The notes under the pieces: model-generated
Told to the model about the DNA's origin: nothing
The model's database searches: none
Seen by the model: only the letters and a program-made list of their open reading frames with translations
Shown: positions 11,828 to 64,000 of the stretch, one piece after another
Layout of the letters: each line of letters opens with the position of its first letter
Position numbering within the stretch: position 1 is the stretch's first letter
IMG/VR virus record: IMGVR_UViG_3300029305_001467
Span: 36,520-100,519 of that record
Source: a virus
Lineage: Duplodnaviria; Caudoviricetes
DNA length: 64,000 nucleotides
Strand: one strand, 5' to 3'
Translations under genes and position numbers: made by a program

Positions 11828-12335
11828 CTTTTAATCACCTCTTTACCCATTCTTCAAAGGTCATACCTTCAATTATCATAAATTCTGACCAGCTTCCTAC
11901 ATCCAATCTTAATCTACCTCTGTCATCTTCACAGACATTCATGTAGTAGCTTTTGAAATTATGATCTTCAAGAAACTTATTAATCTCCTTAATCGCTTCT
12001 TCTTTAGTCTGTGGTTCTGCAATAACTCTTTCTTCTCCACGACTGTTTTGGAATAATAGTCTCATAAATATTACTTCTCCTTCTTCTTTTCAGAAAAGTC
12101 ACAGCATGAATATCTATAACATCCATGTAATGAACAATCATTACTTATTTGACATCCCACATCATTATTTCTATCTTCCTTATCTTTATCTTCGCAAAGT
12201 TTCTTATATGCTTTCATAAATCTTGTGTGCATATTTTTGTATGGTCTTTTGTCTAATTCTCTAAAGACCTCTTGCGCATAATCTTCTGGAAAGCCCATAT
12301 TCACCTCCTAAAATGCCAATAAAATAAGAATTTAA

Positions 12336-12770
12336 TTACTTCAACAACATATAGATGCCAAGTGGATAATAAATGTAATCTAACACAATGTTAAATAAGA
12401 AAATCCATCTGTGGAACTGCTTATCGTTAATTTCTGCTTCCAATTCGAATACACTGTTAAATTCCTTGATTAATGTTCTCATTGCAATTACACAAGTAAG
12501 AATCTGTAATGCAGACAAGATAATAAACAATGTCGTTCCGATGCTGCATCCTAATACTGCATAGAAAATAATCAAGAATAATTCGAACAACAACGTCAGA
12601 AAAAATGCCAAACTCTTAACTAAATCTGTGATTTGTTCTTCCTTTTCTTTTAACTCTGACTTACTTTTTCTTATGTTCTTCAACCACAACTTCTTATTTA
12701 ATTCTCTTGGTGTATTCTTAATTCTGTGCAATAATAGTAAGAATAAAATAGCTAATGCAATAATCTTCAT
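12336..12770 (-). CDS. Hypothetical membrane protein
   Basis: Several hydrophobic segments; RBS present. Confidence 0.6.
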   Translation of the reverse strand: MKIIALAILFLLLLHRIKNTPRELNKKLWLKNIRKSKSELKEKEEQITDLVKSLAFFLTLLFELFLIIFYAVLGCSIGTTLFIILSALQILTCVIAMRTLIKEFNSVFELEAEINDKQFHRWIFLFNIVLDYIYYPLGIYMLLK

Positions 12771-12788
12771 GTATTACTTCTCCTTTAC

Positions 12789-13187
12789 CTAGTCAATAGT
12801 TTCTACATTAATCGGAATCCACATATTCGGATTGAAGTTCAGTGTGTACTTATACTTGGAAACCGCATTGTCCCCCAAATTTAAATCCTCTACTACGTAG
12901 GTCACATTATCACTAAGTCCAACAAAGTGCTTTACATAAGTACCATTATCTTCAACAATAATCTCAAGCTGGTTGTCTGCCATATCCGCAGTAATCGACA
13001 ACTTACCAGTCATCTGGAATAGCACATCGCCCTCGATGCAGTTAATAACTGTGAGCTGACGAACAATATTGAAATTATCTGCTTCTTGAGAAAGATTGTA
13101 TGATACTCTAGCTGCCTCTGTCTGACAACCGGCAAGACCTACAACCATAAAGGCTGCTACTAACAATGTTGCTAACTTCTTCTTCAT
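12789..13187 (-). CDS. Phage lipoprotein
   Basis: MKKKLATLLVAAFMVVGLAGC signal peptide with lipobox. Confidence 0.7.
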   Translation of the reverse strand: MKKKLATLLVAAFMVVGLAGCQTEAARVSYNLSQEADNFNIVRQLTVINCIEGDVLFQMTGKLSITADMADNQLEIIVEDNGTYVKHFVGLSDNVTYVVEDLNLGDNAVSKYKYTLNFNPNMWIPINVETID

Positions 13188-13854
13188 ATTATTCTCCTTT
13201 CTTTTCACCATGAAATCGTACTTCTATTACTTATAAAAGTGTAGCCAATTTCTTCGCTAAGATTTCCTTTGCATTCTTTTCAATAGCTTCCTCAATGGTC
13301 TTCTCTGTTTTCTGCTTCACAAAATTATCTAAAGTTGTGCCGTTGATTTTTCTTGAATCATCCCAATAGCTACCATTAATTAAAGCGTCAACTCTTTTTT
13401 CTACAATTCTTACAATAGTATCATCTAAATGTTTTAATACAAGTTGTTCTGCATACTTGTCCATAGCAATCTTAACCTTTTCTTCTAACTCAGCATTTTC
13501 GATTGATACATTCAAAATCATCTTTGGTTCTGACTTCTTCATTTTATATCCTCCAATTTAACTTCTTACACATACCTTGACTCAAAACCACCAGCGTACT
13601 TAATCTTATACGGTTCTGGCTCTTCATCTTGCCACGGCATCCACGCTAAGATCCCATCCCAATCAAAATAACCTAGTCCCTTACAATAATTAATCGACTG
13701 AACCCAAACTTCTCCCATTCCACCTCTTGTAACCCAAACTTCACCAGTTTTTTCCGGCATGATAGGAGCAACACCGCAATCTACCGGAATCCATACTCCA
13801 CTCTGTACCATCCGTTATCACCTCTTCTCACTTTAAAAGATAAATTCTATTGAC

Positions 13855-60932: not shown

Positions 60933-60959
60933 AAAAAGCACTGAATAATTCAGTGCCTT
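60933..60959 (-). terminator. Rho-independent terminator
   Basis: Minus strand GGCACTGAA-tta-TTCAGTGC-TTTTT. Confidence 0.65.
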
Positions 60960-61317
60960 GACTATCTAATATCTAGTGCCAATGAAACTTCAATCAAATA
61001 TCTCACTTCATCTGCGTTGTCTCTCATGTACTGAGAAAATCCTTCATCTTCATCTGGATTTATGCCATCTTCTTTGCATTCCTCACAATATATACTCCAC
61101 ATACTGTCCTCAATCGGTACTGAATTAAGTTGCTTTCCTTTGTATTCTATGTATGGATCAGACCATTCTCCATGCCAAATGAATCCAATGTCTTCAATTC
61201 CATACCAATTTGGATACTCCTTCATGGGAAAACTTGCCACACCATTTTTAACTACAAAATCCGTATCTATTGTACTTGTCATATCAATTCCTCCTTTAAA
61301 ACGGTTCTTTTATTGGG

Positions 61318-62247
61318 TTATGCGAACACTCCTTGAATTGTTTCGAACAATTTATTACTTGTTACTTCTTTTGCTATTTCTTCAACCAAATCACTCCCCC
61401 ATTTACTTGAATAAAATCCCCAACAAGAATCCGTATGTTCATCCCAATTCATATCATCTTCTTCAAGTACATCAAATCCATTTTCTAACGATGCTTGATC
61501 ATCCATATCCAACTCATCAATAATATAACCATAACAATCTCCTTGAAGATATTGGTCATACATATCAACTTCATCTTCCATCCATAATCTAGCAGCACAT
61601 CTCCAATTTCTATCAGTTACTTTAATCCAATTTCCATTTTTGGATTTTATTTTACCACCACACCCAAGAACATCTTTCTTAGTTGTGTAAATCCAACCGG
61701 CTTGACCACTATCCCAAGGGCAACTAAAACCACTTGTTCTCATAGTTATCCCACCATGCTCGTAAACATTAAGTGGTAAACACTCAATCCCATTTCTTTT
61801 TAACAACTTCCACTTATCTTCGAATGACATAGCATCAATAATATCGTCAATAAGATGTTCAAGAGGATTATAACTCGCAATAATTCCGTGATGAACTTCA
61901 CTACCAGTCCACCAATATCTGTAATATCCCCAAAGTTCCCAAACACATTCACTTCTGTTGTACTTCAATTCTAATCCATTAGATGTTTTCTTTGCCTTGA
62001 TATAGTTAATAATTGTTTTTTCGGATACATATTTTCTCACTAAATCATTCACAAAATCTTCTGGCTCAGAATAATTATTTTCCTTATAGTCTCCAAGTTC
62101 ATATCTGTTCCACCAACACATCATATGTCCAATATTTCCATCCATATTATATCTCGGATTCCACGGTTGTTCATCTCTTTCAATGTGAATTCTACAAACC
62201 TTACCATCACAATCTTTGAAATATCTGTAATTTTCCATATCAATCAA
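61318..62247 (-). CDS. Conserved phage/MGE hypothetical protein
   Basis: YEHGGITM...CPWDSGQAGWIY motif; long ORF with RBS. Confidence 0.6.
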   Translation of the reverse strand: MIDMENYRYFKDCDGKVCRIHIERDEQPWNPRYNMDGNIGHMMCWWNRYELGDYKENNYSEPEDFVNDLVRKYVSEKTIINYIKAKKTSNGLELKYNRSECVWELWGYYRYWWTGSEVHHGIIASYNPLEHLIDDIIDAMSFEDKWKLLKRNGIECLPLNVYEHGGITMRTSGFSCPWDSGQAGWIYTTKKDVLGCGGKIKSKNGNWIKVTDRNWRCAARLWMEDEVDMYDQYLQGDCYGYIIDELDMDDQASLENGFDVLEEDDMNWDEHTDSCWGFYSSKWGSDLVEEIAKEVTSNKLFETIQGVFA

Positions 62248-64000
62248 CCATCCTTTCTATAATTCTTCCCAATAATCAATCAGACCAGGCAATACATAAC
62301 CTAAATCTAAACTCGTGTACTCTTCAAACTCTTCAAGTTCCTTCATTTCATCTTCCGTTGGAATCTTTGCACCCATGATGTAATACACATCATCTTCACG
62401 CCCACCGTTGTCTAAGATTATATGTAGTGTATTTTCTAAAGCTCCATATAAATCTGTTGTGCCGTCTGTTGCAATTGCATTCCGTGTTACATATTCATTG
62501 TGTAAGTGATACTTTACAAGGACTTCTCCATCTCCAAGTAAGTCTAATAAGTTAATCTTTGTCATACTGTTTGCCTCCATTTCTCCATCAAAAAAACAAG
62601 TAACATTTCTGCTACTTGCTTCTTCTCTGTTTGTTGTTTGATTACTCAACCTCTACATTAAAACACATCTTACCACATGCAACATCCCACGAGCACAACT
62701 CTAAATCAAGATACTCTTCTGGGATATCTGATAGAAACCCAATGTATACAAAATCTTCTTTGATTAAATCGTATACTACACATCTAAATACGCTGTCCGT
62801 TGCTAATTCAACAAAATCTCTTACTGTAATCATCATATTAGTCCTCCTTTATATCAACCCCAATCTTGGCAAATCTTTAAAACCAACATATCATCAATGA
62901 ATGTTTGGTCAAGTAATGCGCAATCAATTGGATTCTCTTCTCCAATACATATTCTATCGAACTCCCACTCTCCATCGAAACTTTTCTCTTTACTTATTTC
63001 GATGGAAGTATTGTTATAAATCTTTTCGTTTAATGGATTATCATTAAAAGGGATAAAACCCATTTCTTTTATTCCATAATACGTCAAGATTTTTACATTG
63101 ATATTACTTTCGCTCATAATAATCCTCCTTTTCTTCTTGAAACAGTAGTTTTATTGCCGTTTTTATTCTTCATTTTCCTTGATAATATCAATCAAATTTT
63201 CAAGGTTATAATGTGCCTGTTCTCTTGCATAGTCCGTTATTTCCTCAACTGACATTTCTTCAAGTAAAACTCTGTCTAACTCTTCAAGTTTCTTTATAAG
63301 TTCGTCTCTGCTCATTCTCATTTCCTCCATAAAATACACGATTTAACGCTTTATATAAAATCCTTTATCTCCGTTTGTACTTCTGTAAAATAACTGCTCT
63401 GCTGATGCAGAACTTCCATATTCGTAACTACAAGGTACTCTGAAAAAGTCTTTCCCGTTTTCAGATGTGTAAATCTGTCCACCCTTGCAATAAATTTCCT
63501 TTGCTTCTGCTTCTGTAATTTCAATATAATCCATATTAATCAACCTCCATTCGTTATTAAGTATATCACAACCGGTTCCGTTTGTCACTCCCACCCTATT
63601 GAATTACCATTCAAAATAACTAACGACTTTCCATTCTGCTTCTCTTACATAATCGTATCTTCTCTGCTTTTCCATAACTGCTTCAGAAATCTTAACTCTC
63701 TTTGCACTCTCGTCTAATTCCATCTTTACCGTAATCTGTTTTGACGGAATATCACATACCCAAATATGAGAGTCATCAGTCCCATACCACTCTGCTTCCA
63801 TGTCATATTCCATATAAAACATTTCCCATGCTTCGTCCATCCGTCTCTTAATTTGTTTTTCTGTCATTGCCATATTTATTTACCTCCTTTAGAATTACAA
63901 TTTCATGGTGATTTATAACAATGCAATGACCGCATTTCTATACATCGTTCTTCCATACATCTCAACTTCTTTCTGATACACAATTCCTTTGATGTGTTCA

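Follow-up and report, generated by a model that had tools for sequence, protein, structure and literature searches.

Introduction

What is the role of a short palindrome that recurs at most gene junctions in one part of a phage genome? The question is raised by a stretch of 64,000 nucleotides (the window), which corresponds to bases 36520-100519 of a 100.5-kb IMG/VR viral contig (IMGVR_UViG_3300029305_001467; completeness estimate 62%). The window starts with a replication module, encoding a DnaE-type polymerase, a PD-(D/E)XK nuclease, a DnaB-like helicase and an AAA_24 ATPase, and continues with approximately 52 kb of small minus-strand genes, the accessory region, in which an array of palindromic sites occupies most of the gene junctions. 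A first-pass annotation of the window had proposed that these sites delimit gene cassettes in the manner of an integron. Comparison with related genomes now places the end points of gene exchange, and of one inversion, at the sites, and the 6-bp spacers at their centres are conserved and colinear between genomes. The sites are probably, to judge from their architecture and from this behavior, core sites of the tyrosine-recombinase type whose spacers serve as slot addresses for cassette exchange between related genomes.

No phage record matched the window by megablast. Relatives were fetched with a 342-amino-acid (aa) tyrosine recombinase encoded within the array as probe, yielding 80 IMG/VR loci at 54-61% identity and closer contigs at 75-96%. 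Relatives of this recombinase were also found in metagenome-assembled genomes of gut Lachnospiraceae/Clostridia, in one case within a 378-kb contig; the phage is thus a temperate one that infects gut Clostridia. The window polymerase shows 55% identity to its counterpart in Clostridium phage c-st, 49% to that of phiCD211, 41-45% to those of Geobacillus E3, Perkons and Tsamsa-like phages, and approximately 22% to SPbeta YorL (local tblastn).

A family of dyad sites between genes

Window 12319..63906, no strand assigned: array of approximately 70 dyad sites with 6-bp arms and a unique 6-bp spacer, 22 bp with the flanking C/G.

The pattern WTRRAW-N6-WTYYAW was matched 64 times with a spacer of 6 bp, as against 7-16 times with the other spacers between N2 and N11 and 2-13 times in a swapped-arm control, an approximately 8-fold enrichment of the N6 spacing. 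A weight matrix, built from the same 66 listed sites that it then scored, returned 70 sites in genome 48.8-100.5 kb (window 12.3-64 kb) and about 10 in the first 48 kb; a Markov control predicts about 18 over both strands of the whole 100.5-kb contig. The approximately 66 palindromic 18-bp sites of the first-pass annotation are therein largely recovered, as 56 of the 66 listed starts fit the strict pattern and 65 score at least 10 bits, the exception being the decayed copy at 46659. Two details of the annotation need amendment: a scoring site occurs at 2792, within the 1-11 kb replication core in which none had been seen, and of the variants described with 5-bp spacers some read better with N6, e.g., those at 56540 and 40328. 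Read on the coding (minus) strand, the sites conform to a 22-bp dyad with the consensus C-A-ATARAAY-N4-RTTYTAW-N-G. With this 6-N6-6 dyad and its symmetric weight matrix, the family has the inverted arms around a 6-8-bp overlap that characterize tyrosine-recombinase core sites. Close relatives carry 22-27 sites per 21 kb, and distant relatives carry few, mostly ATGAAA-N6-TTTCAT.

The position of the sites is equally constrained. Intergenic cores account for 61 of 70, though only 25% of the region is outside open reading frames (ORFs; P ~1e-27), and the median site lies 2 nt past the previous stop and 20 nt ahead of the next start, as had been described for sites lying between stop codon and ribosome-binding site. 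That the units so delimited are mostly promoterless agrees with the absence of enrichment for sigma-70-like promoters in 44-64 kb (102 vs 93+/-8). All 70 spacers are distinct within the window; the uniqueness claimed for them is thus real, although by itself it is not significant, since only 1.3 identical pairs are expected (P(0)=0.26).

Gene-content breakpoints fall at the sites

If the sites are junctions of exchange, homology between relatives should end at them. All pairs among 677 distinct site contexts were compared by their 40-nt flanks, the pairs being chosen without regard to the site. Where only the upstream flank was homologous the spacer was identical in 88 of 122 pairs, and where only the downstream flank was homologous in 99 of 153, counts which do not represent independent events, as flanks were clustered in 40-nt windows and many pairs derive from related metagenome contigs. 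With neither flank homologous, 1334 identical-spacer pairs were found against approximately 180 expected from a binomial fit, with no excess of pairs differing at one position. An identity profile, in which one pair per flank-cluster combination was counted to lessen this non-independence, is as high in the near arm and the spacer as in the adjoining flank, falls to the level of the consensus in the far arm and reaches background beyond it, in both directions. The crossover thus lies inside the site to a resolution of a few bp, the arms stay with their own flanks, and exchange partners share the overlap sequence, in the SPbeta family (below) as well; each of these is a property of tyrosine-recombinase core sites. 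The first-pass annotation, which had regarded the sites as swap junctions and had suggested comparing gain and loss breakpoints in related phages, is borne out in that homology breaks off at the site edge with retention of the spacer.

Three places in the window illustrate the pattern:

Window 58607..58624, minus strand: site with spacer TGACGA; relatives carry this spacer in 24 distinct contexts, comprising 16 families of upstream flanks and 10 of downstream flanks.
Window 49437..49454, minus strand: three-way junction with spacer TCATCG, which the window, L124 and L121 have in common; the upstream flank matches the relative L124 and the downstream flank matches L121.
Window 50326..50891, minus strand: two-gene block, of which 50355-50887 is 97.9% identical to L121 while the neighboring DNA is not.

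The L121-like part of the block begins within site 50874 and stops 12 nt short of site 50326. The occurrence of one spacer in many flank combinations is a four-gamete pattern, and the reassortments are clear; spacer CCAAGT, for example, is combined with 8 upstream and 10 downstream flank families.

Spacers as slot addresses

Of the window spacers, 25 recur in L121, 17 in L126 and 20 in L128, all of them colinear. Between consecutive shared spacers, 16 of 24 (L121), 12 of 16 (L126) and 14 of 19 (L128) slots are without blastp homology and differ in length. When these sites of the same address are compared, differences affect 141 of 744 arm positions and 5 of 402 spacer positions (Fisher P 1e-22), so that the spacer is, at the sequence level, the best-conserved element of the region. 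At window site 46659-46676 the arms have decayed (ACCAAA...TTTGAT) and the spacer TTCTAG is still that of well-formed sites in L121 and L128; here the spacer has outlasted the arms. The spacers accordingly mark positions, or slots, and do not travel with cassettes. Because those within one genome are all different, neighboring sites are not expected to recombine with one another, and the insertion and excision of circular cassettes envisaged in the first-pass annotation gives way to a better fit, that is, same-address exchange between related genomes.

What the slots may hold is seen in L124, the closest relative (recombinase 96% identical), in which one slot contains an IS605-type OrfB/TnpB gene (3625-4629) and the slots after it contain a RelB/YafQ toxin-antitoxin pair. 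Slots of the array can evidently accept mobile and addiction genes.

The main rival to recombination at dedicated sites is that the palindromes are chiefly regulatory, serving as operators or roadblocks for a dimeric protein in a long early operon, and that exchange is a by-product of short-homology recombination by phage or host machinery. Such a role would suit a position fixed between the stop and the Shine-Dalgarno (SD) sequence, a largely promoterless array and a dyad whose arms do not covary, as in dimer binding, and the PeSLs (early promoter and stem-loop composites) of T4-type phages demonstrate that modules can be shuffled by way of conserved motifs between genes (PMC2839356). However, a spacer that is not contacted should drift, yet the spacers are approximately 15 times more conserved than the arms; this is expected where recombination partners must match there and is not expected of an operator spacer. 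Partners are often identical over only about 10-12 bp, the arms differing at 15-25% of positions. On this balance a mainly regulatory origin is unlikely, and the inversion described next bears on it as well.

An invertible segment bounded by two sites

Window 14877..15033, minus strand: candidate invertible segment between two sites with reverse-complementary spacers (GTATAA/TTATAC), within a 30-nt imperfect inverted repeat.

Sites 14877 and 15016 are the only compatible pair inside the window and lie upstream of a gene for a 350-aa protein (13855-14907). Relatives were fetched with this downstream gene and have the same arrangement, and the reverse-complementary spacer pair is present in 6 loci. 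The segment of approximately 118 bp is found in one orientation in L171 and L178 and in the opposite one in L174. Between these the flanks are 93-94% identical, and the segment is 55-58% identical when compared directly and 97% after reverse complementation. The same segment therefore occurs in both orientations between inverted repeats, as in an invertible switch, and the window agrees with L174 in its orientation. Recombination across imperfect repeats as short as these (about 12-18 bp), with inversion of the DNA between them, is characteristic of dedicated recombinases, which argues against short-homology recombination at operators. In the fimS/FimBE switch and the RecV switches of C. difficile, short inverted repeats likewise bound a segment of approximately 120 bp upstream of a gene and both orientations exist in nature; unlike there, the repeats here are two members of a genome-wide site family. 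The L171/L163 orientation contains a short ORF that starts MKG after an AAAGGA/AAAGGAG motif. As far as they were compared, both orientations leave the same TTG and no convincing SD.

The palindrome in SPbeta and other large phages

The inner core of the sites, TAAAA-N6-TTTTA, is enriched in 11 other large phages of Firmicutes with a DNA polymerase III alpha (PolIII-alpha):

SPbeta: 34 exact TAAAA-N6-TTTTA sites, control 2
phi3T, SPR, Goe12 and BUCT083: 30-36 exact sites, control 0-2
Geobacillus E3: 30 exact sites, control 7
Perkons: 17 exact sites, control 2
Tsamsa: 23 exact sites, control 3
pW2: 28 exact sites, control 1
c-st: 27 WTAAAA-N6-TTTTAW sites, approximately 5 at other spacings
phiCD211: 25 WTAAAA-N6-TTTTAW sites, approximately 3 at other spacings

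By its distribution among these sequences, the palindrome is a hallmark of the phage supergroup. In SPbeta it extends to TCTARA-TAAAA-N6-TTTTA-TYTAGA, an 11+6+11-bp, 28-bp palindrome of about 38 copies, mostly at early-region gene junctions (AF020713, L032-L038; e.g., 86074, 95129, 99498); a literature search found no paper describing it. Outside the family of the window, junction behavior was tested in the SPbeta family only, and was found there. Among five SPbeta-family genomes, spacers were identical in 40 of 43 pairs with only the upstream flank homologous and in 46 of 53 with only the downstream flank homologous; with neither homologous, 67 identical-spacer pairs were counted against about 8 expected (binomial fit). 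Homology stops at the edge of the 16-bp core. Some arrangements are plainly recombinant, e.g., that in BUCT083, where spacer TCGTAC joins a phi3T-type upstream flank to an SPR-type downstream flank.

The laboratory hybrids of phi3Ts and SPbeta reported by Dragos et al. include one non-homologous junction, in the region following yosA, and were otherwise joined at long homologous regions. With junctions in long homology, these hybrids do not settle whether the sites are used. The SPbeta copy at 116415, near yosA (116521-116640), is annotated as a stem_loop in AF020713.

Which enzyme may act on the sites

Window 51958..52962, minus strand: atypical tyrosine recombinase of 342 aa, starting MAQKR at 52962, with a match to Phage_integrase.

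The gene sits in the middle of the array. Its product has no N-terminal core-binding domain, an insert of approximately 130 aa and a C-terminal extension, and all six catalytic residues (R62, K95, H224, R227, H254, and Y263) are invariant in 22 homologues. The predicted structure contains a tyrosine-recombinase catalytic domain (predicted local distance difference test 78) and is best matched by IntI, XerA, and XerH; the best fold match in the PDB, VchIntIA 2a3v, is weak (E 1e-3, template-modelling score 0.35-0.40) and no better than XerA/XerH. A phmmer search of PDB sequences gave no match. An intact tyrosine recombinase inside the array, as first described, is thus confirmed, and the intact R-K-H-R-H-Y set makes this protein a candidate for binding and cleaving the sites; that it is the enzyme is the part of the original proposal that we infer, as is the tyrosine-recombinase chemistry itself. 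Most likely the enzyme is this array-encoded recombinase, and in SPbeta it is possibly YopP, an XerC/D-like core gene product for which a literature search found no paper giving a function.

Several observations weigh against this assignment, or against dedicated recombination altogether. Exchange confined to identical patches of 10-18 bp could come from short-homology recombination, and the flank-pair counts include non-independent events, as noted above. No homologue of the 342-aa recombinase was detected in c-st or phiCD211, and in profile comparison SPbeta YopP and YopR were not detectably homologous to it. Recombinases with no detectable relationship accompany a common TAAAA-N6-TTTTA core, which weakens the link to the 342-aa protein and leaves room for a conserved host enzyme. 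In favor of the tyrosine-recombinase reading, every motif-bearing phage checked encodes at least one PF00589 protein; the correlation of motif and recombinase is uninformative, as 8 of 8 genomes scanned for both features had both.

A host dimer-resolution enzyme of the XerC/XerD type (CodV/RipX) may then be considered to recombine the sites, as with pdif, the phage recombinases being uninvolved. This would explain why one core is common to phages of Bacillus, Geobacillus, Psychrobacillus, Clostridium, Clostridioides, and Lachnospiraceae whose recombinases are not detectably related, and the 11+6+11-bp sites of SPbeta are dif-like. However, XerC and XerD bind arms that differ from each other, and the arms of the present sites are symmetric; dif sites read ATAA-N6-TTAT beside the spacer, not AAAA-N6-TTTT. 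Every phage group, moreover, has a tyrosine recombinase that is otherwise unexplained; c-st is a plasmid prophage, and in SPbeta integration proceeds through the serine recombinase SprA (PMC10516654). Recombination by the host enzyme alone is considered quite improbable.

Operator, promoter and hairpin readings

The first-pass annotation had offered repressor roadblocks like those of mycobacteriophage L5 as its main alternative. Stoperators of the L5 type are 13 bp long, asymmetric and aligned with the direction of transcription, and the phage repressor binds them, whereas the window sites are symmetric and their spacers are the most conserved part, and this alternative is not favored. A closer precedent may be sought within the supergroup. 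In SPbeta the master repressor, MrpR, is a protein of tyrosine-recombinase fold that binds the element SPBRE (PMC10516654), which, like the palindrome, is repeated and intergenic. A motif search upstream of ten SPbeta genes with MrpR peaks in chromatin affinity precipitation sequencing (ChAP-seq) found a ACAAATACAAAAAATATGTATATAAT-like box at 10 of 10. This box, which we take to be SPBRE, the text of PMC10516654 printing no SPBRE sequence, differs from the palindrome (about 38 copies in SPbeta), and the palindrome was rejected as the MrpR operator. The window recombinase was likewise rejected as an MrpR-like, recombinase-fold repressor, as its catalytic residues are kept. A tblastn search of all window ORFs against c-st, phiCD211 and SPbeta found only the replication module in common and no common DNA-binding candidate, so that a repressor shared by the phage groups, which the regulatory explanation would call for, did not emerge.

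A sigma-70 promoter reading of the arms was rejected, as there is neither a fixed-offset -35/-10 signal nor, as stated, promoter enrichment. The sites might also be RNA hairpins in a polycistronic transcript, with a role in its processing or stability or in the control of translation. They are situated immediately ahead of the SD, and the extended SPbeta palindrome, one copy of which carries the stem_loop annotation, could form an 11-bp AU-rich stem. At every palindromic arm position, however, the number of Watson-Crick pairs is that expected of independent arms, and A-C mismatches between arms are not depleted but as frequent as expected. Because the arms do not covary, selection of a hairpin for pairing is unlikely, and the RNA or DNA hairpin reading was rejected. 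It would also leave the spacer conservation, the exchange junctions and the inversion unexplained, and is regarded as very improbable.

A model of address-coded exchange

The data may be assembled into the following model. Two degenerate inverted arms would bind the enzyme, and strands would be exchanged across the 6-bp spacer. As each junction has its own spacer, the sites within one genome would be mutually incompatible, and each would be compatible with the site of the same address in a related phage or prophage. A pair of crossovers, one at each of two addresses, would then replace the genes between them, preserving gene order and leaving units of SD plus gene intact. The lone compatible pair within the genome, being in inverted orientation, would produce an invertible switch of approximately 120 bp.

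The nearest counterpart is an engineered one, namely cassette exchange between heterospecific lox or FRT sites of the Cre-loxP family. There too, inverted arms flank a 6-8-bp spacer at which partners must match, and sites with different spacers do not cross-react, so that the segment between them is swapped without deletion. Here, the arrangement is natural, comprises approximately 70 addresses per genome, uses degenerate 6-bp arms in place of 13-bp arms and would operate between related phage genomes, with a presumptive enzyme. Integrons (IntI, attI, attC) similarly consist of arrays of mostly promoterless small gene units between recombination sites with a tyrosine recombinase nearby, and the weak VchIntIA match adds a likeness of fold. 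However, the window sites are not the folded single-stranded attC, there being no covariation; no attI/Pc platform was noticed, though no search for attI was made; and the sites mark positions and are not cassette-borne, so that, neighbors being incompatible, circle excision is not expected. The PeSL motifs are also conserved intergenic motifs of hyperplastic regions in which modules are gained, lost and replaced, but they are promoter-plus-stem-loop composites, alike over their whole length and thought to be driven by homologous recombination (PMC2839356, PMC4122927). The window sites share only short arms, each with a private conserved spacer, and show no promoter at a fixed offset and no selection for a hairpin. 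The pdif modules of Acinetobacter plasmids are bounded by short arm-6 bp-arm sites, which the 11+6+11-bp sites of SPbeta resemble; pdif arms are asymmetric (XerC, XerD), alternate in orientation and are acted on by host enzymes, whereas here the arms are symmetric, the addresses ordered and the setting that of a phage.

Other genes of the region

The contig upstream of the window encodes tail and lysis proteins as well as a canonical integrase (phrog_1, genome 24998-26164). Also before the window, in locus L011 (124-6361, genome coordinates), two long plus-strand ORFs flank one for an HNH/homing endonuclease (3907-5004); the first of the two (124-3471) matches a tape measure protein and the second is 5402-6361. 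Within the accessory array, a full-length NAD-dependent DNA ligase (LigA-type, BRCT) is encoded at 27413-29344 on the minus strand, with 43% identity to the c-st copy. The array is broken up by a conserved landmark, a cluster that combines a phage sigma factor (phrog_1740) and an opposite-strand Xre-type helix-turn-helix (HTH) gene (window 41679-42242, minus; 45265-45498, plus; 44805-45152, minus) with strong sigma-70-like promoters and two terminators at 45.2-46.2 kb. At the position equivalent to window 44805-45152, relatives have a PemK-type toxin gene beside the HTH gene.

Significance

Phage mosaicism is usually ascribed to illegitimate or homologous recombination plus selection. Here, a defined family of 16-22-bp sites with unique, conserved, address-like spacers coincides with the boundaries of mosaicism throughout a phage supergroup. 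If a recombinase reads these spacers, the phages would possess a built-in means of ordered accessory-gene exchange, which would explain how hypervariable early regions remain colinear despite turnover of their content. It may be, although we advance this tentatively, that the large temperate PolIII-alpha siphoviruses of Firmicutes (SPbeta, phi3T, Tsamsa, c-st, phiCD211 and this Lachnospiraceae family) share address-coded exchange of accessory and anti-defence genes between co-resident relatives, carried out at dozens of heterospecific sites by a dedicated phage recombinase (the 342-aa protein here, YopP in SPbeta) and leaving the order of genes undisturbed. Dozens of naturally occurring, mutually orthogonal sites served by a single recombinase would, in addition, be of use in genome engineering. 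As SPbeta and phi3T show the same junction behavior and are tractable in Bacillus subtilis, the idea is directly testable, and the findings suggest a role for the conserved SPbeta gene YopP.

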